DNA of 63,932 bases, the filler included, from Collodictyon triciliatum (lineage: Eukaryota): the NCBI GenBank assembly GCA_043381765.1. It is 9 parts of 9 records of this genome, joined end to end, with 100 filler letters (N's around TTAATTAATTAA, not from the genome) between each part and the next. Parts side by side here need not be neighbours in the genome. Positions count along the whole stretch, not along the records: positions 24,286 to 32,279 come from JBHJMP010003638.1; 8 more parts are not named here. One strand, given 5' to 3'. The position numbers and the translations under genes were made by a program. This document shows, one piece after another, positions 7,997-32,279 of the stretch. The notes beneath the pieces are model-generated. The model saw only the letters and a list, made by a program, of their open reading frames with translations, was not told the DNA's origin and did no database searches. Each line of letters starts with the position of its first letter. Position 1 is the stretch's first letter.

Positions 7997-8096
7997 NNNN
8001 NNNNNNNNNNNNNNNNNNNNNNNNNNNNNNNNNNNNNNNNTTAATTAATTAANNNNNNNNNNNNNNNNNNNNNNNNNNNNNNNNNNNNNNNNNNNN
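7997..8096. other. Artificial contig linker N44-TTAATTAATTAA-N44 (also 16093-16192, 24186-24285, 32280-32379, 40369-40468, 48457-48556, 56542-56641, 62783-62882)
   Basis: Identical six-frame-stop spacer embedded in N runs. Confidence 0.98.
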
Positions 8097-22793: not shown

Positions 22794-22954
22794 TTGGCAC
22801 GCTCACCATGGGACATCATCCACGGCTGCCTCATAAAGCAGGGCGACATGCGAGAGATAACCGAACCGAACACGATAGAACCACAGCAAAATCACGACCC
22901 GACCCGACACGACAGGGCAAGGCGAGGCGAGGCGGTGTATGGGACAGACGGGCA

Positions 22955-24019
22955 TCAGGCAGCAGCGGCGTCGGGCAGGCGGGCAGGAGAGGACCCGAGG
23001 CGTGGGCGGTGGAGGCTGGATGTAGACGTGGGGACGGGGGCAGGAGTGGGTGTAGGAGCAGGAGTGGGTGTGGGTTGGGTGGCGGGTCGGGGTGCCGCGG
23101 CCGAGGGTGTCGTCGTCCGAGGGCGGGGGCTGCGCGGAGTCTGCACGGCATGTGGGCGCACCGGCGTGCTTGCACGGCGTGCTGGCGGGTTTGTGGGCGG
23201 GTTTGTGGGCGGGAGGATGCTGGAGAGCGATGCTCGCTGTGGCTGTGGCTGTGGCTGTGGCTGTGGCTGTGGCTGTGGTGGCAGCTGGCGAGCCCGAGTC
23301 TTCTCCTCGGCGGTGACTCGGGTGGAGTCCAGGAAGACAAGGCCCTCTAACTTGCCAAGAACGTAGGAGCTGCCATGCATGGAGGGGATGAGGCGTGTTG
23401 CAGATACAAATACAAATACAAACACAGATACAGATACAGATACAGATACAGATACAGATACAGATACAGATACAGATACAGATACAGATACAGATACAGA
23501 TACAGATACAGATACAGATACAGATACAGATAGAGTTTAGGAAGAGCCACCGGTATGCAGCGTCGCGCTGCTCCCTGGCCGGATTACCCAGCATGGAAAG
23601 GTAGCGCAGCCCCGGTAGGCTCCGCCGCACTCGATTCACGAAGGCAGGCAGGTCTGATATCTCGTTCTTGTTGATGCACAGCGTCTGCAGCGTCGGGCAG
23701 GAGCCGATCTCGGAGGCGCATGAGATACAGTTGCTGTCCACAACAAGCGTCTCTAGCGCACTGAACGAACCCAGAAACTCCAAGTCCCTGTGTCCAGATA
23801 ACGAAGAGCGTGTGAGTTGAGGCACAGACACTCACGCAGAAGCACAAGGACGGAAACACAGACATATCAATCCATCCGCACGACCCTTTACCTGAGCTGG
23901 TTTCCCGTCAGGTCCATGTATCGCGCACTCCCTCTGTATTTCTCCACCAGTGCCTCAGGGAACTCCGCGTACTCCTGGAAGGCGAGGTGGAGTTCGCCGG
24001 TTTCGAGCACTGACTCCAT
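22955..24019 (-). CDS. LRMDA/C10orf11-like leucine-rich-repeat protein with Pro-rich tail, 3 exons
   Basis: ATG 24019; MDLTGNQL|DLEFLGSFSALETLVVDSNCI...LQTLCINKNEISDL...LRYLSMLGNP...YR|SYVLGKLEGLVFLD (LRR cap); intron phases compatible. Confidence 0.8.
23425..23531. repeat. (CAGATA)n intronic microsatellite
   Basis: Seen directly. Confidence 0.95.
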
Positions 24020-24285
24020 GGGCCACCACCTGAGCCTGCGCAAGCCTCGTCAACAAAGACACGCGATTCCCTTCATCTTTTCCCTCTCTACCCCTATTTT
24101 TTTTTTTTTTTTTTTTTTTTTTGGGCTTCTTTTTTTTATTTTTTTTTTTTTGTTTTGTAAAACCTTTTTGGGGGGGGAAAAAAAANNNNNNNNNNNNNNN
24201 NNNNNNNNNNNNNNNNNNNNNNNNNNNNNTTAATTAATTAANNNNNNNNNNNNNNNNNNNNNNNNNNNNNNNNNNNNNNNNNNNN

Positions 24286-24383
<98 letters not shown>

Positions 24384-24425
24384 AGGACGGATAGCTGAAT
24401 TATGCTAACGATGAGGTACATCTAG

Positions 24426-25465
24426 GATTCTTTCATATCCTCTCACCGAACCAGAAGAGACAGTCTCTCCATCACAAGTCTCCCACCAGGATATGTGATG
24501 AATGAGGCCATGGTTGACCCGATGGGTCGCATGCACGGGCCACCTTCATTCCAAAGTATTGAGGCAGCCAGAGTGTGGGACATGATTCCGGGAGAAATTC
24601 ACCGCTTTAATAGAGATGACTTTGAGGACATCCGCGGGAGCATCATGTCTACCGGATTTAACATAGTTTGTGCCATTTTCTTTAAAAAAGTGTGGTTTAT
24701 CCAAAACTGATAGTCGTAATGAGAGTCTAGGACATTCTCTGGGTACTTCTAACCAAATACATGTATCTCAAGGTCCAAAAAATTATGTACCTTGGAAAAA
24801 TTTACTGTCTGAAAGAGCCGTCGGTATACAACGAAGGGTATTAACCTGCATACGCATTGGTAGATGTGTGTATACTCTCAGACAGTCCCAGTAATATTCA
24901 TTACAAACATTAAATAAGCACTTATACCTCAGACATACAGGTGGACATACCATATATACGCCTACAAATGGCCGAGAATTCTCTGAGTTGGTCAACAAAA
25001 TGATACGTTCAGAGGCTTGTGTGTTGGGGTAATGTCATGAATATTTTTATTTTAATCACAACACATCTTTATTTTTCATTTTTTAAAGTATTATGAAGGG
25101 CTGTAGTTTAGAAAAACGCCTCTACCTTGAATGAATAAAGGAAAAAATTGGAAGTATATAAAATTCGGACTATGGTTATTGATTTTCCCCTCTTTACCGA
25201 CTACCATATTAAGGTACATAGGGCGTCATAAATATATAGTCTCGTTGTTGGGAATAATCGACAATGATATACATCCCGGTATTATTCTGGAGTATGGAGA
25301 GCTTGGAAATCTACAGAACTTTATCAATCGAAATTGCTTCGACACTGGGATTACTGGAAAAATTCGCATATGCTCACAAATGGCAGAGGCCATCGAGCAT
25401 ATACATAAGATGGATGTTGTTCATGGCGATATTCGTCCCGAAAACATTTTGGTATGACTGGAATA

Positions 25466-25564
<99 letters not shown>

Positions 25565-27048
25565 CACTACACGGTACACGTTTCTTCTTTACCGCATATA
25601 AATCTTGGTATTATTTCTAAAAGTAGAGCTTAACTTTCCTTAATCGCTTAACATTAAGGCTTTTATGACACACGACCTCATTCAATTCTAATTACACTGC
25701 ATATGACCCACGATATCTCCAAACGATGGACCACCATAATCTTACAGACAATTATCAGATTAACATAGTTTATATCTCCTTGTAGCTCTTTAGAGAGTCC
25801 AATACCATCGTTGCCAAGCTTGCAGACTTTGGACTTGCATCCTGCCCAAAGCTTCTTACCACATGCAGAGAAATCGCATTCGTTCGCTACTCCGCACCGG
25901 AAGTGCTCAAAGGCCGCTTTGTAATACTAAATAGAATTTGCTTTACAATGTCCCTTTTTCTTTCTTTTGTTTTAGTCTAAGAAGAAACATACCTTACAGG
26001 CGACCACAAGGTCAGACATTTACTCCTACGGAATGACCATCTGGTCACTCTTCACTCGAGAGGTTGGTTTCCTTAATCTATCAATTTAGAAAACCTAATC
26101 GTGCAGTGAGTCAAACATAAATGAAATCCAATAAAGTCAAAATTTGGGTGGTTGTCTAATCTCTGTGTTCATTAGAGACTGAGTATATACGCGAAAAAAA
26201 AATTCGAGGTATCTATTTCATTTTCATCACTCACATGCATAATACAGGAACCTTATGTCACCTTGTCTCTGGACGAAATGATTCAGTCTATGGAATCCGG
26301 GAAGCATATATTGCCCATGCAAGGCGTGCCGGATGACCTTGAATCGATGATAAAGAGCTGTTGGACAGCACGTCCAGATAAGCGACCCACAGCATCGGAT
26401 ATCCTCCCACGCCTCTCGTATTCCTGGACCATTTACTCCATGAAAGAATCGGGCCAGGTGGTTTCAGCACCCGCGCCACCGCCCTTTGTTGTGACTCGTG
26501 ACATGCCCTTGAGAATCGAAGTGGAATCCCTCCGCGCAACTTGTCTGCAGATTATAGAGCTCAACTCAAAGACACTAGCCCTGCGTGAACAACTTGGCTC
26601 CACCCTGACCCAAAGAGAACGTGCGTGGCCTTACTCCCACGTGCAAGGAGCAGAACACATACAATCATCACTTCACGGTCAAGGATACAAGACAGCCGAC
26701 ATGGTTGACCAAGAGCCGATTCGCGCCCGCCTCAATTCTGATGATGAGGCATTTTACAATCATATATCCACTCTCTATGACATATTTTCGAAGGAGATTC
26801 TAAGCACAGAATACATCGAGTACTGGAACAAAATGGTTCGGGAGTCTTTGATTATGCGACACCAAATTGCCATTTATCGCAGGGATGTTTCGTCTGACCC
26901 CAAAACAAGTCCCAAGGAGTAAGTCAAGTTTTTTTTTTATTTTGATATTCTTCCTTCCTTCCTCTAGCACAAACTGAAAGGAAAACCCCAAAAAACTTGG
27001 TCATACTCTTGCTATTATGTAAAATCAGATGGAACATACCGTCATACC

Positions 27049-27097
<49 letters not shown>

Positions 27098-29880
27098 ACA
27101 TGCACGATCAATGTAATGGTCACATCAATAAATCATAACAACTTTTATTTCGTTTTTCTTTTATTCAATTCAAAGAAGCATACCAACTTGTTAAAATAAC
27201 ATTCTCATCATGCACAGCACTGTTCGGTTCATCATCGATGAGCAGCCATATTCACAAGTGCTCTTGAAATGCCGAAAGGATGACTCATGGAAAATCGCGT
27301 TCAAAAATCACCCCTTGGATGGAAAGTACAGTCGCAATACTTGAGATTTTTTTCTCCCTAGATTGAAGATTTAAACTGAATCCCCAAATCGTCCCCAAAA
27401 AATAATATATTCACAAATATCTTGGGATAGATACTCACTGAAATTGTTGCGCGGAGCCAATCAACACATAACTGGTGTTGGTAATCTGAAGATTTTTGTC
27501 ACTTGTGACAATAAAACGATATCGGTACGTCTTTTCTTCCCCTTTAATCTTTCCTCGCAAAGAATATATTCGCTTCCAACTGCTTCCTTTTCTGTTCATC
27601 ATAAACGAAGAATTAACATGGCCTCACAGAGCCTGGAACAAAATTGTGTTATTTGCTGGCAAGGGCGATGGGGGATGCAACCTGACAGTCAGACAATCAC
27701 GGTTGATGTCGATAACATCACAATCAGAGAGCAAAAGGTGACAAATTCAAGAACCATGAATCATGATGATGTTTTTATTTTAAAAAAAAACGAAGAAATA
27801 ACCAAGAAATAACCAAGAAATAACCAAGAAATAACCAAGAAATAACCAAGAAATAACCAAGAAATAACCAAGAAATAACCAAGAAATAACCAAGAAATAA
27901 CCAAGAATAGCGGTAGAAACAACAAATTATCACATAGCAAGCAAGTGAATCAGTGCAGACATAGTGAGACTGATACTAAAGTCAAAATTACATTTACTTA
28001 CAGGTTCGGAAAATCTGCATGCATTTCTGTGTTGAGGTAGTTGTGGAGGGGAAACGAATCCAGATCTTGAGTGACCCATCAAATCCCATGCTCCTCATCA
28101 CACATTCATCGCAATGGCCCGATGCCTTCCGTGACATTGTGATTGAAGAGTCTTTTGTGCACAAGGTGCTTGCCCATTATTCTACCGCCTTGTTGATTAT
28201 TATCGAATACAAACTACGCAGTACTTGTGTGCTACATCAAGATATCCGCTGACATTGATAATTTACATTCGATTAATTCAACAAAGGATGTCATCACATT
28301 CGAAACCTTGGCCAATGTCATCACGAGACATTTTCTTCATTCACTTTCTACATATGAAGATGCACCTGATCGCCCCATCACTCGAGAGGAGCTGGACTTT
28401 ATCCACATCCGAAAGTTTGGTGAGAGGAGCCCTTCATATCATTCTGCTATCCAAAGCAAACAGAAATATCAATTTTGATTTTTTTTTTTTTAATGTATCC
28501 ACACCTAATAACGACAAATATATACTTACCAACACCAGATGGGAAATCCACAATCGGGCGTGAGAAATTCCTCAGCTTTTGGATTTACTTTGGCGCGTTA
28601 ATGTCAACACTAAGGAAGGAGCGCATCAGAAAATTATGGGCAGAAGGGTAAGGATATATTTAGAGTTTGAGAAGAACCCTATGTACAAAACCGCCCTGTA
28701 TGATAATCATCTTCATCTCCATTTACATAACAACCACTCAGTTCAATTTATTCTGATTATTTAACCTATTCTCTAAACTGTTTTCATTCTTTAAAAAGGT
28801 TAATATTCGCCTTTGCTGATACGGCATATGCTACTGATATGTTGATGCTTATGGAACACGGGACTGCCATGGTGCGCCTGTCAATATCGAAACCCGGGGC
28901 CCTTGTGATATCAATTCGTCGGCCAGATAATGTGGTTCACATTATGATTCACCCAGTAAGTATAACCTTTCTCCTCTACAGACATACTCCTATCACTTCA
29001 ACATAGGAACAAAGGCTGCACTATCCCACTATGTCTTTATCATATTTTCATATTTTGATGCTGCAAGAGAGTAATTATGACACGAAAAAAAAATCATCCG
29101 ATTGGGGGCTCTAATTTGTATGCGCCTCAAACTCATGTTATTGAACTCTCCTCAAAGGACAAACTTGGATACCGAAAGGACATTTTCGAAGTTATCCGCA
29201 GCTATGAATTTACTCGCTTGCTGATAAACTGCCGGCCTTCTCACTTTGCCATCCGACGAGAATTTTTGACCTCCAGATTTGCTAACATCCAAGGAACCCA
29301 AGACCCATCCGACCACCACCACCACCACCACCACTTACGCCCGACTGATGATTTCAGTGCGAGCCCCATAAGGAAGAAAGATGTTTCCAATCGCTCGCGA
29401 GGGAAATCATCCCGCTCGTATTCAGGTGTGCTATTCCCAGCATGAAGTATTACGTTGTCCTTCGTCATATCTTATTTTAACTCCTGTACAATGCCATTTT
29501 TATTATTATTTTCTTAGCTTATTGCCTTTGATTTAAAAAAGGGATGTATTTTGATAAGCTTATTAATTACAATTTATACCTTTTTGCAAGCGTGATTACC
29601 ACGAGTATTGTGCCCCACTCTCGTTTTTTCTTTTTGTCAGTTTTTGAACATGTGTGCGACAGTTGGCTCATCCACAAATCACAAATGACACGACGAGTAC
29701 ATTCATGACCTTATCTGACATCACTTAGGCGACGAGAATGACGAATCTGTTCGCGCAAACGACGACAGCCACTTCTGGGGAGACAAGGACGTCATCGACT
29801 CTGTCAAATTGGACGGTGCCATGCACTCTCGCGTTGTATCGCAGGGATACATTTTCTTCTCCGAGTTTGTGAACCAGTAG
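24426..29880 (+). CDS. Putative protein kinase (TK/TKL-like)-STAT fusion: kinase, coiled coil, STAT DNA-binding domain, linker/EF, SH2, C-terminal GY; 5' partial
   Basis: 16 phase-compatible GT-AG exons: 24426-24665, 24773-24837, 24933-25028, 25214-25451, 25786-25920, 26000-26062, 26248-26918, 27218-27325, 27431-27524, 27630-27737, 28004-28165, 28287-28419, 28539-28647, 28799-28955, 29158-29425, 29729-29880. Kinase motifs YCLK, HGDIRPEN, DFG, RYSAPE, SDIYSYG, CW..RP. STAT motifs EQPY, LLRGA, SNPMLLITHSSQW, RHFL..RP, FWIYFG, LWAEGLI, MVRLS, QGYI. Confidence 0.78.
25467..25564. repeat. (TTA)n intronic microsatellite
   Basis: Seen directly. Confidence 0.95.
27796..27906 (+). repeat. 11-bp minisatellite (AAATAACCAAG)n in a STAT intron
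   Basis: About 10 perfect head-to-tail copies, no spacers. Confidence 0.9.
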
Positions 29881-30777
29881 TTCGGGTGCCATATCTCCAC
29901 CCCTTATACTTGTTCTCTTACCCTCATCTCGACCGCCTGAAGAAACTGATTATTTTTTTCTTCACCCGTGATTCCTTATCCCACACCCCTGTACGACCCT
30001 GGCCAAATGCGTCTTCAGAAACAAACATACTTCAACTCTATAGTCCGCCTACCGTCTTTTCTCCTTACTGAAAACAAAAATCGATAGCCACCAAAATAAA
30101 ACCTGAAAGAAAATCCCGGGTGCATCGGCAACACGTCGACTCCAAGCGCCAGCCGCAGCGTTTCTTTTCATTCTACCTTCTCCCTCGAAACCACTAACAC
30201 AAGAACGCAGTATGTCGGCAAAGCGAGACAGAAAGCCGAAGATGCAAGGGAATGGGATATCGCACTGCTGATTCCAGAAAGTCTCAGAATGTTCCGCACT
30301 TTTCCAGATATAAATATTACACATCTCATATTAATATTCTTGGAATACATATCTAAATTTTCCCATGTGAAGTTGCATATATATAGAAAACCACCTATTT
30401 CAACATGAGCCCCCTACAAATAGCGCGAGCTTCACAAATGGGTCTATTTAATCCGCCTCGTCTGGGCTTGGACTCCTTGGCTCTTGTATTCAGCCTCTCA
30501 ATCATGTGCAAGAAAACATTCGCATTCAACAGCAACACCGGAGAACCCAAGCAGCAGACGGACCCAATCCGAGGATAACAATGCGACGCCAACCCAAGTG
30601 ACGGGAACTAGCCATGCAGCCCGGCATTCAAAGGCGGAGGATTCGATGCAAATCGGCTCGATTTTAAAGGAGAGACTCACTTGACCATCCCCTGAGCAAA
30701 CAGATGCACACCAGATGAACAGAGAAACAGAGAGAGCCCACTCCACCTTCAGAAACATGATCGAGCGGGTGATCCGT

Positions 30778-30821
30778 CACCTGTCACCCACCTGTCACTC
30801 ACCTGTCACTCACCTGTCACA
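30778..30821 (+). promoter_or_regulatory. 4 x 11-bp tandem CACCTGTCAC(C/T/A) motif just upstream of the secreted-protein ATG
   Basis: Repeat seen directly; regulatory role is inference. Confidence 0.35.
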
Positions 30822-30830
30822 CAGAACCCC

Positions 30831-31298
30831 ATGGCCCGCTCCCAAAGCCTCCTCGCCCTCGCGGTTGTCGTGCTCGTGTGCGCGGCAGCGTCTGCACAGG
30901 CCTGCAAGCTGACGCACTCGCAGGCACTGTCGAAGCTGCAGGCCAACGGCCTGACGGTCTCGTCGAGCGGCAACTGCTCGGACCGCAACAACCCCAAGTG
31001 CACGTCACTGGAGCAGATCAACTGCGCCACCATCGACGGCATCATCCGCTTCAAGACGCAGTCCGGCTGCTCCACAAACGTCACGGGCGGCACTGAGACG
31101 GGCCACTCGTCCGGCACCTACTCGCACTGGAACGGCTACAAGGTTGACATCAGCCTCTCCACCTGCAACCAGAACTACATCCCCGCCACTTACACCTTCA
31201 TCGGCTACCGCGGAGACGGCGCTGCCCAGTACCAGAGCTCCAACGGCAACATCTACGCCAAGGAGGGTAACCACTGGGACATCCTTTACTACAACTAA
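30831..31298 (+). CDS. Secreted 155-aa bacterial-type protein, putative zinc peptidase of the M15/LAS-like (D-Ala-D-Ala peptidase/Hedgehog-N) fold
   Basis: Signal peptide MARSQSLLALAVVVLVCAAASA; intronless, high GC3; motifs TGGTETGH, SHWNGYKVD (H-x6-D) and NHWD; resembles small secreted actinobacterial proteins from recollection. Confidence 0.8.
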   Translation: MARSQSLLALAVVVLVCAAASAQACKLTHSQALSKLQANGLTVSSSGNCSDRNNPKCTSLEQINCATIDGIIRFKTQSGCSTNVTGGTETGHSSGTYSHWNGYKVDISLSTCNQNYIPATYTFIGYRGDGAAQYQSSNGNIYAKEGNHWDILYYN

Positions 31299-31538
31299 GC
31301 CCTCGCCCGTCTGTCTTGCAGACCCCTAGTTGTGCACATAAAGCCACCGCCTCAGTCGCCTCCACCAACTCACCTCGCTGACGTGATTACCCTTCCCACG
31401 CTCATGTTGTGTCTTGTTTAGTCTTGTCACAACATGCTGCGATGTATTCAAACGGAGTCGAAGCGTGGGAACGAAAATCGCATGTAGCCGATTTTAGATT
31501 TTATGTACACTTAACTGACTCGTTGCATCCAAGAAGTA

Positions 31539-31611
31539 GCTCGCATAGCTTAGTTGGTAGAGCGTGGTGCTAATAACGCCAAGGTCGTAGGTTCGATCCC
31601 TGCTGTGAGCA
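31539..31611 (+). tRNA. tRNA-Ile(AAT)
   Basis: 73 nt; acceptor GCTCGCA/TGTGAGC, D-loop TAGTTGGTA, anticodon loop CT-AAT-AA, T-loop GTTCGATC, downstream T-run. Confidence 0.97.
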
Positions 31612-31869
31612 ACTATCACTTATTTTTATGTGTTACAATGCGCGGAGGCCACAACATGCTCTGTTTTCATTTTGCTTATAATTTCTCCATTTCTTTTGCA
31701 AATACTTTTTTCATTGTCTCGCAAGCACGCGAGTGTGGAATCACAGTCCCTTTGGCGCGGCCCCTCTTCCAATCCCTTCACTTCTTCGGCTCTGGTATCG
31801 CCGATAGTGAAGCTATAGCAATTCTTTATTATTTTATTTTATATTTTTCCAACTAGAGGCACTTTTGAA

Positions 31870-32164
31870 ATGGCGATGCCGATGACTGTTGGGCTGGAGT
31901 TTGGTGCTGTGGCCGATCTGGAGCAGGTTTTTATTCCTACTCTGTAATAAGTTTATTTTTTTATTTTTATTTTTATTTTTTTCGGTTCTTTTCCGTTACT
32001 TAATAGGAACGCACAGACGAAACAATTCATGCAAATGTTTTGAAGTCTTGCGATAACTTTGCTCGTCTATCTTTCCTACCTTGATTCAGACGGTGCGAGA
32101 GTCGATTCCTGCTTACGAGTTTGTCTGTGTTCCTTTGATTCATCCGCGCTACAAACGCAATCTG
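31870..32164 (+). CDS. PRMT5: PRMT5 (SKB1/HSL7) first two exons, 3' partial
   Basis: MAMPMTVGLEFGAVADLEQ|TVRESIPAYEFVCVPLIHPRYKRNL matches the PRMT5 N-terminal motif (FDFLCMPVFHPRFKR). Confidence 0.75.
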
Positions 32165-32244
32165 GTTTGTCACTAGAATACAAATAAGACTCATTATTAG
32201 TTCTATCTCATTTTCATATAATAGTCAGTTCTGCATAGAGACAC

Positions 32245-32279
<35 letters not shown>

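Follow-up and report, generated by a model that had tools for sequence, protein, structure and literature searches.

Introduction

STAT signalling is, in the textbook view, the meeting on demand of a kinase and a latent transcription factor. In Dictyostelium, excerpts of one account (PMC4196871) describe how the tyrosine kinase-like (TKL) kinases Pyk2 and Pyk3 autophosphorylate on tyrosine, how the SH2 domain of STATc docks on the sites so phosphorylated and how STATc is then phosphorylated, and they assign the control of STATc to the phosphatase PTP3. Excerpts of two further papers place STAT-like proteins with a coiled coil, a DNA-binding domain and an SH2 domain at the divergence of the Amoebozoa (PMC3670263; PMC4053784). 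Here we describe a gene of Collodictyon triciliatum in which kinase and STAT are covalently linked. It lies at positions 24426-29880, on the plus strand, of a stretch of 63,932 nucleotides from assembly GCA_043381765.1, and "the window" below means the whole of that stretch.

The region had been singled out as a kinase fused to a full STAT, a candidate one-component transcription factor. The observation behind this original prediction is confirmed and its interpretation is partly supported: the fusion and the coiled coil were read correctly, the extent of the gene was incomplete, and the function is one that we infer from sequence features. Our own reading, held with moderate confidence, is that the gene is real and expressed and that it places a STAT tail, a tyrosine kinase (TK)/TKL-like kinase and a complete Dictyostelium-type STAT on one chain, where they would form a self-phosphorylating switch. 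The domain architecture is new, built from known kinds of protein, and elsewhere we found it only in Diphylleia rotans.

Kinase and STAT are read from one mRNA

Kinase and STAT are one mRNA and one reading frame. The 16-exon model, built from reading frames, GT/AG sites and tblastn with the closest relative (P0001, described below), gives a spliced product of 2799 nt with a single open frame of 932 amino acids and no internal stop. All 15 introns run GT..AG, with lengths of 79-334 nt, in agreement with the number and phases of introns first called. The decisive junction is at the end of the long frame 26176-26922, which closes with GAG TAA (26917-26922; TAA at 26920-22). A GTAAGT donor starts at 26919, its first G being the G of GAG, and overlaps this apparent kinase stop; exon 7 ends at that donor, two bases into a codon. 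The acceptor CAG ends at 27217 (AG 27216-17), and joining 26918 to 27218 yields the codon GA|C (Asp) followed by the frame TVRFIIDEQP. Stop, donor and acceptor had all been called from the sequence, and all are there.

Contigs of four public runs (X1-X4) were compared with positions 25570-30100; introns 1-4 lie outside that stretch and are read purely from homology and GT-AG sites. X1 and X2 come from the same study and are labelled as two organisms; that they are RNA is a guess. Matching contigs, all at least 99% identical, number seven in X1 and four in X2. Because they skip introns at GT..AG and some bear loose ends that we take to be template-switch cDNA adapter, we read these contigs as cDNA. 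The joint 26918->27218 is carried by one contig in X1, with a shorter side of 34 letters, and by one in X2; the two bridging contigs are 171 and 314 nt long, at a depth of about 4.7-4.8. Nine further GT..AG joints in cDNA-type contigs match the model exactly after cut shifts. Joints are thereby seen for 10 of the 11 introns within 25570-30100, and for the eleventh (25921-25999) a loose end at 26000 carries 11 letters equal to the end of exon 5. A second study supplied X3, a freshwater metatranscriptome in which exons 11-13 are covered and a single joint is visible; no contig of X4 matched 25570-30100.

The original prediction had named RNA across 26918/27218 as its check and transcripts stopping at 26922-27130 as the sign of separate genes. 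The first is seen, in one contig each of X1 and X2. As to the second, positions 26938-27089 of intron 7 are uncovered in all four runs, which is not proof that this intron is never retained.

The exons and their contents are as follows.

24426-24665, plus strand: exon 1, conserved end of an upstream STAT (PPGY, Tyr codon 24492-94) running into the first part of the kinase N-lobe
24773-24837, plus strand: exon 2, degenerate glycine loop, beta-3 strand and putative ATP-binding Lys (AAA 24812-14, in IYCLKEP)
24933-25028, plus strand: exon 3, 17-residue insert, then helix alpha-C with the conserved Glu
25214-25451, plus strand: exon 4, kinase subdomains IV-VIb, catalytic loop HGDIRPEN (HGD 25422-30)
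25786-25920, plus strand: exon 5, DFG (25825-33), activation loop and SAPE
26000-26062, plus strand: exon 6, kinase subdomain IX; joint to 26248 in run X1
26248-26918, plus strand: exon 7, end of the kinase C-lobe (to about 26412), linker and three STAT coiled-coil helices (about 26521-26892)
26919-27217, plus strand: intron 7, 299 nt, GTAAGT..CAG, with an A48 run and AATAAA; spliced out in X1 and X2 contigs
27218-27325, 27431-27524, 27630-27737 and 28004-28165, plus strand: exons 8-11, QP motif and Ig-like STAT DNA-binding domain
28287-28419 and 28539-28647, plus strand: exons 12-13, EF-hand-fold linker domain; joints in X1, X2 and X3
28799-28955 and 29158-29425, plus strand: exons 14-15, SH2 with the phosphotyrosine-binding Arg (CGC 28875-77, in MVRLS) and a poorly conserved His/Ser-rich tail
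29729-29880, plus strand: exon 16, C-terminal tail with SQGY (Tyr codon 29848-50) and stop TAG (29878-80)

An orthologue in Diphylleia rotans

Word-based protein searches returned a Diphylleia cluster as the sole close relative. Its representative, P0001, has 1467 amino acids and is 51% identical to the window over the whole of exon 7. The cluster has three members, labelled Diphylleia rotans in EukProt, all complete open reading frames (ORFs) of one Trinity gene; 13 residues at the N-terminus and a cassette of 27 in the C-terminal tail are all that sets these isoforms apart. The spliced model aligns to residues 543-1417 of P0001 at 60.5% identity over 880 columns with one gap column (E = 0), and P0001 has an Asp at the exact position of the splice junction. 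Since the product aligns over such a length to one Diphylleia rotans protein, the spliced gene is not a product of chance.

P0001 is a STAT - kinase - STAT protein. Pfam places PK_Tyr_Ser-Thr (146.1 bits) and Pkinase (126.7 bits) at residues 659-875, and STATa_Ig, EF-hand_12 and SH2 in two stretches each, one set on either side of the kinase; the core before the kinase has Ig, EF-hand, SH2 and GY. Residues 1-227, ahead of the first STAT Ig domain, include a His/Pro-rich stretch and have no Pfam match.

This architecture bears on how much of the Collodictyon gene the window holds. Position 24426 is not the start of the gene but that of an exon behind an acceptor (AG 24424-25) whose TAG shuts the upstream frame. 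The contig that bears the gene spans 24286-32279 and opens within a (TTG)n repeat, 140 bases 5' of exon 1. Because exon 1 directly follows an acceptor with an in-frame stop upstream, the 5' end of the gene is cut by the contig end, and exon 1 must be spliced to sequence further 5'. Exon 1 aligns to P0001 543-622, where the first STAT core closes and the kinase opens; its PPGY is PQGY in Diphylleia, and its first 24 residues are conserved. With these residues conserved and no in-frame start, the gene very probably extends upstream into a first STAT core, so that its full architecture is likely to be STAT-kinase-STAT rather than kinase-STAT. The fusion that had been called stands, but the gene is not whole: the window holds its 3' two-thirds, with the tail of an upstream STAT in exon 1. 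Two scans of metagenome contigs, one with exon 1 and one with exon 11 and the Diphylleia isoforms, found no relative.

A STAT predicted to begin within the kinase exon

By alignment and structural modelling, the STAT starts within the kinase exon: the part of exon 7 after the kinase, in the same exon as the end of the C-lobe, is the STAT coiled coil. With the STAT beginning there, the link between kinase and STAT does not depend on the junction alone. P0001 876-1467 was searched with HMMER against all 1.84 billion representatives, and 382 relatives reached E <= 0.001. Of these, 150 are listed, and at least 25 STAT relatives among them, P0001 and P0004 left out of the count, align from query residues 91-154, which lie inside the exon 7 tail; for P0009 and P0011, Pfam assigns the matched segment to Dict-STAT-coil. 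Aligned by MAFFT with 27 STATs, the tail in the window falls opposite their coiled-coil helices and shares with them a Leu that is near-invariant in the family, and the family QP motif directly follows the splice junction.

An AlphaFold2 model of P0001 876-1467, built on 105 sequences (predicted local distance difference test, pLDDT, 76.7; predicted template modelling score, pTM, 0.79), has three helices, an Ig-like domain, an EF-hand linker and an SH2 domain. Its best match by far is Dictyostelium STATa, 1uur (Foldseek E 1.1e-26; template modelling score, TM, 0.74-0.76), with mammalian STATs next at Z 14-18. The original prediction had set the post-kinase part of the exon against the STATa coiled coil and proposed a structural comparison. 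With this orthologous module, VIA gives Z 30.1 and a root-mean-square deviation of 5.7 A over 438 of 461 residues, model 33-515 lying on chain 242-702, and the match takes in the coiled coil of the crystal structure from its first residue onward.

The STAT module

The plus-strand frames carry, in order, LLRGA, SNP..ITHSSQW, RHFL, DRP, FWIYFG, LWAEG, MVRLS and a terminal GY. The predicted STATa-type series of DNA-binding domain, linker, SH2 and GY is upheld by these frames, by Pfam and by the fold match to 1uur. Measured against 105 STATs, 19 of 22 near-invariant residues are kept in the window, among them the SH2 Arg (MVRLS) and the C-terminal Tyr (SQGY); the SQGY Tyr of exon 16 aligns with the near-invariant STAT tyrosine, and the G and Y of the C-terminal GY with the near-invariant G and Y of the family. 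Three window exons were dropped from the STAT alignment as fragments misplaced at 9-13% identity.

The profile matches agree in part with the families that had been expected. Kinase, EF-hand_12 and SH2 were recovered, STATa_Ig was weak in the window and clear in P0001, and Dict-STAT-coil was not recovered. Taken exon by exon, STATa_Ig reaches E 0.033 and 14.6 bits, against a cut-off of 26.6, and 59.1 bits in two stretches of P0001. EF-hand_12 scores 24.8 and 14 bits on exons 12 and 13 separately, the whole-protein cut-off being 25, and 106.3 bits on P0001. SH2 scores 26.9 bits on exon 14 against a cut-off of 21, with the Arg and Ser of (I/V)R(F/L)S kept. Identity to Diphylleia varies along the module.

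Linker: 13/32 identical
Coiled coil: 66/128 identical (52%)
DNA-binding domain: 118/139 identical (85%)
EF-hand linker: 80/101 identical
SH2: 59/100 identical (59%)
Tail: 19/85 identical

That the DNA-binding domain is the most constrained part argues for the STAT module being a working transcription factor.

Rarity of the architecture

No kinase family was found by Pfam in any of the 27 longest STAT relatives (at least 673 amino acids) among the 150 matches listed; the same 27 carry EF-hand_12 (27/27), STATa_Ig (26/27), SH2 (24/27) and Dict-STAT-coil (15/27). A kinase hidden Markov model (HMM) made from 40 kinases matched 4 of 156 proteins, namely the three Diphylleia isoforms and P0153, and none of 148 other STAT relatives. 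Approached from the other side, one of 74 relatives of the kinase region has STAT domains, and it is P0001; the other 73 are without them. P0004 and P0153 were rejected as independent evidence: they are unspliced ORF calls on a 1039-bp contig that is 100% identical to exon 7. The claim that no other protein joins a kinase to a STAT thus holds among the relatives surveyed with one exception, the Diphylleia rotans orthologue.

Searches of open-access text, supplements excluded, found no description of a kinase-STAT fusion or of Diphyllatea STATs; the domain-architecture figures in the supplement to PMC4053784 may be relevant to this point. The text of PMC11603278 does not mention STAT, kinase, SH2 or transcription factor. 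A different and unusual phosphotyrosine-reader architecture turned up among the kinase relatives: P0178 and P0206, of about 1255 amino acids and from assembled public runs, combine kinase, SH2 and CARD.

Intron 7, contig context and neighbouring frames

Because the TAA lies inside GTAAGT (window 26917-26924), a transcript that kept intron 7 would be translated no further than the coiled coil, into a product of kinase and coil that lacks the DNA-binding domain and SH2; no contig supports such retention. Intron 7, which also holds AATAAA (27128-33) and the A48 run, could serve as a switch between full and truncated isoforms. Simple repeats occupy introns and the contig edge: (TTG)n at 24286-24384, (ATT)n at 25467-25563, A48 at 27050-27097, and an intronic 10-mer array, (AATAACCAAG)n, at about 27797-27907.

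The contig is bounded upstream by a joiner.

24186-24285, no strand: artificial joiner, 44 N + TTAATTAATTAA + 44 N

The joiner TTAATTAATTAA with its 44-N flanks is present in 8 copies (chance expectation 0.05) at a spacing of about 8.09 kb, with the motif at 8041, 16137, 24230, 32324, 40413, 48501, 56586 and 62827. Because the joiners recur at that spacing, the window is read as a chain of contigs of about 8 kb; no feature is readable across joiners, and genes near them are cut.

The contig that bears the gene holds, further downstream at 30696-31298 (plus strand), a Cys-rich open frame of 200 amino acids with a hydrophobic start inside it and no Pfam family at E <= 0.01. On the previous contig, 22803-23831 (minus strand) holds a frame of 342 amino acids with leucine-rich-repeat-like text (LETLVVDSNCIS, LRYLSMLGNP), broken by a long (TG/CA)n tract, translated as ICIC repeats. 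This frame is probably exons plus an intronic microsatellite.

Discussion

In the reading we favour, the built-in kinase would phosphorylate, in cis or from one chain to another, the GY tyrosine behind each STAT core. The resulting phosphotyrosines would be bound by the SH2 domains, as in STAT dimers, and the DNA-binding domains would close as a clamp on DNA, with transcription regulated as the outcome. Control could lie with a tyrosine phosphatase or with regulation of the kinase, and no separate JAK- or Pyk-type kinase would be called for. We favour such a self-contained switch because the fusion would fix a docking of the Pyk2/Pyk3-STATc type, making the docking of the STAT SH2 on the kinase permanent. 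Self-phosphorylation, dimerisation and DNA binding are properties that we infer for this protein.

A number of results weigh against this reading. The key joint is known from a single study, and its shorter side in X2, at 24 letters, falls below the tool's 31-letter bar. Pfam Dict-STAT-coil does not match exon 7 or P0001 at E <= 1, and hhalign of the window tail against 25 STATs gives a modest result (54 columns, E 4.9e-4, probability 32%). Folded alone, exon 7 forms three long helices (residues 92-126, 156-182 and 187-215; pLDDT 67.7), a generic three-helix bundle that resembles BAG domains at Z of about 13; STAT1 follows in 31st place at Z 9.4, and the 50 matches listed do not include 1uur. 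A tblastn search with the orthologue found no first STAT core elsewhere in the window. The remaining points concern the kinase. The glycine loop reads MSTGFN in the window and ISTGFN in Diphylleia, against GxGxFG in 40 kinases, so that in place of GxGxxG there is a single, shifted Gly. Between beta-3 and alpha-C lies a 17-residue insert, and the Pfam kinase profiles match P0001 only from profile position 40 onward. Nucleotide binding may be impaired, or the domain may be a pseudokinase. A specificity for Tyr is suggested by context only, Ser/Thr versus Tyr being unreadable from sequence.

These features of the kinase lend themselves to the best surviving alternative, which we consider rather unlikely: the fusion is real and the kinase does not phosphorylate the STAT tyrosines, serving as a pseudokinase or scaffold (like JAK JH2) or as a modulating Ser/Thr kinase while a separate tyrosine kinase activates the STAT. 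Along with the degenerate glycine loop, the insert before alpha-C and the unmatched first 40 profile positions, it can draw on the catalytic loop HGDIRPEN, which is of the KPEN type with Arg, not the AAR of dedicated tyrosine kinases, and on language-model look-alikes, generic kinases among which PBK-type clusters are commonest (17/30; a lead only). Yet the beta-3 Lys, alpha-C Glu, HxD Asp, Asn, DFG Asp and APE are present in both the window and Diphylleia, whose kinase domains are 50-61% identical. Aligned by MAFFT with 40 unrelated kinases, IYCLKEP has its Lys in the column of the VAxK Lys and IRSEA its Glu in that of the alpha-C Glu; DFG, SAPE and the motifs of subdomains IX and XI are visible, as is the catalytic loop, a non-RD one (HGD instead of HRD). 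In the window the profiles are strongest on exon 4 (PK_Tyr_Ser-Thr 52.5 bits, Pkinase 51.9 bits; 52.5, 28.3 and 16.7 over the kinase exons) and on exon 7 match residues 1-55 only. The nearest solved kinases (about 1e-24) are the tyrosine kinases FGFR, EGFR and ABL, together with RIPK1, and the STAT kinases of Dictyostelium are, in excerpts of PMC4196871, themselves TKL-type and not classical tyrosine kinases. The kinase is probably, though not certainly, active.

An extension of the self-phosphorylating switch is tempting, and we advance it tentatively as a doubtful possibility. Here the protein is STAT-kinase-STAT and its two cores pair intramolecularly through reciprocal SH2-phosphotyrosine contacts, making a single-chain dimer with its own kinase that arose by internal duplication in CRuMs, beside Amorphea. 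A quick, unrooted IQ-TREE analysis was confined to 31 STAT cores with at least 250 profile positions matched, most of the 150 listed being left out. In it Diphylleia core 1 groups with core 2 plus the window (SH-aLRT 99), apart from the other 28, which suggests that the two cores arose by internal duplication; both branches are long (1.8 and 1.4), and the tool warns on such joins. Complex prediction of P0001 215-580 with the second module, run without controls, scored 0.00 and speaks neither for nor against pairing. If the single-chain dimer were true, a whole JAK-STAT-like pathway would be contained in one polypeptide, and STAT-type factors would predate the amoebozoan-animal ancestor.

It is improbable, in our view, that the fusion is real and its STAT parts are no longer a transcription factor, serving a cytoplasmic kinase instead as domains that read phosphotyrosine, regulate or recruit substrates. 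The long branch that sets the window and Diphylleia apart from the other 28 STATs would suit such a change of role, whereas the Ig-like DNA-binding domain is the best conserved part (85%, where SH2 reaches 59% and the coiled coil 52%) and keeps the near-invariant ITHSSQW and LAN, which points to selection on that surface.

We regard it as highly improbable that a kinase gene with its end at TAA 26922 and an adjacent STAT gene are linked only by rare read-through splicing, or that a chimera of the assembly or of Trinity has joined them. A stop codon does sit exactly at the junction, AATAAA and A48 lie in the 299-nt gap, and the bridging contigs are short, of the low depth given above and from one study. 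But a separate STAT gene would lack the coil that sits in the kinase exon, the first STAT exon opens in phase 2 and lacks a start, no contig covers 26938-27089, the joint is canonical GT..AG and keeps the frame, and the independently assembled transcriptome of the other species has an uninterrupted ORF in three of three isoforms.

The self-contained switch, should it hold, would matter beyond this lineage. A natural kinase-STAT chain that probably bears two STAT cores would lead from tyrosine phosphorylation to a gene by a path simpler than any other known. Such a protein would also allow a direct test of whether early STAT control lay in a phosphatase rather than a kinase, as the STATc work suggests in the excerpts cited (PMC4196871). 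The finding places a Dictyostelium-type STAT in a relative of Diphylleia, and so compact a switch could interest protein engineers.

Comparison with known systems

The closest structural counterpart is Dictyostelium STATa (1uur/1uus), which has the same coiled coil, Ig-like domain, EF-hand linker, SH2 and GY in the same order and fold. The difference from STATa and other amoebozoan STATs is that here the coiled coil has a kinase directly in front of it and that the orthologue carries a second STAT core ahead of the kinase. Among the matches listed, other STATs are 20-31% identical in sequence to this module. The organism also sets it apart from the amoebozoan family, being a relative of Diphylleia (CRuMs, by the EukProt label) and neither amoebozoan nor animal.

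With the Pyk2/Pyk3-STATc system the gene shares a TK/TKL-like kinase together with an SH2-bearing STAT. There kinase and STAT are separate proteins, and the likeness is one of kinase type. The SHK kinases of Dictyostelium do carry kinase and SH2 on one chain, as here, and are not known to have the STAT coiled coil, the DNA-binding domain or the EF-hand linker.

In metazoan JAK-STAT signalling, tyrosine phosphorylation beside an SH2 domain leads to reciprocal SH2-phosphotyrosine pairing of STAT cores, and a similar pairing may be imagined here by analogy. Pfam finds in P0001 one kinase domain, with neither the FERM domain nor the pseudokinase-kinase tandem of a JAK. The protein therefore resembles a JAK-plus-STAT pair at most by analogy, and differs from it in that the kinase is covalently linked to its substrate and no receptor is implied.

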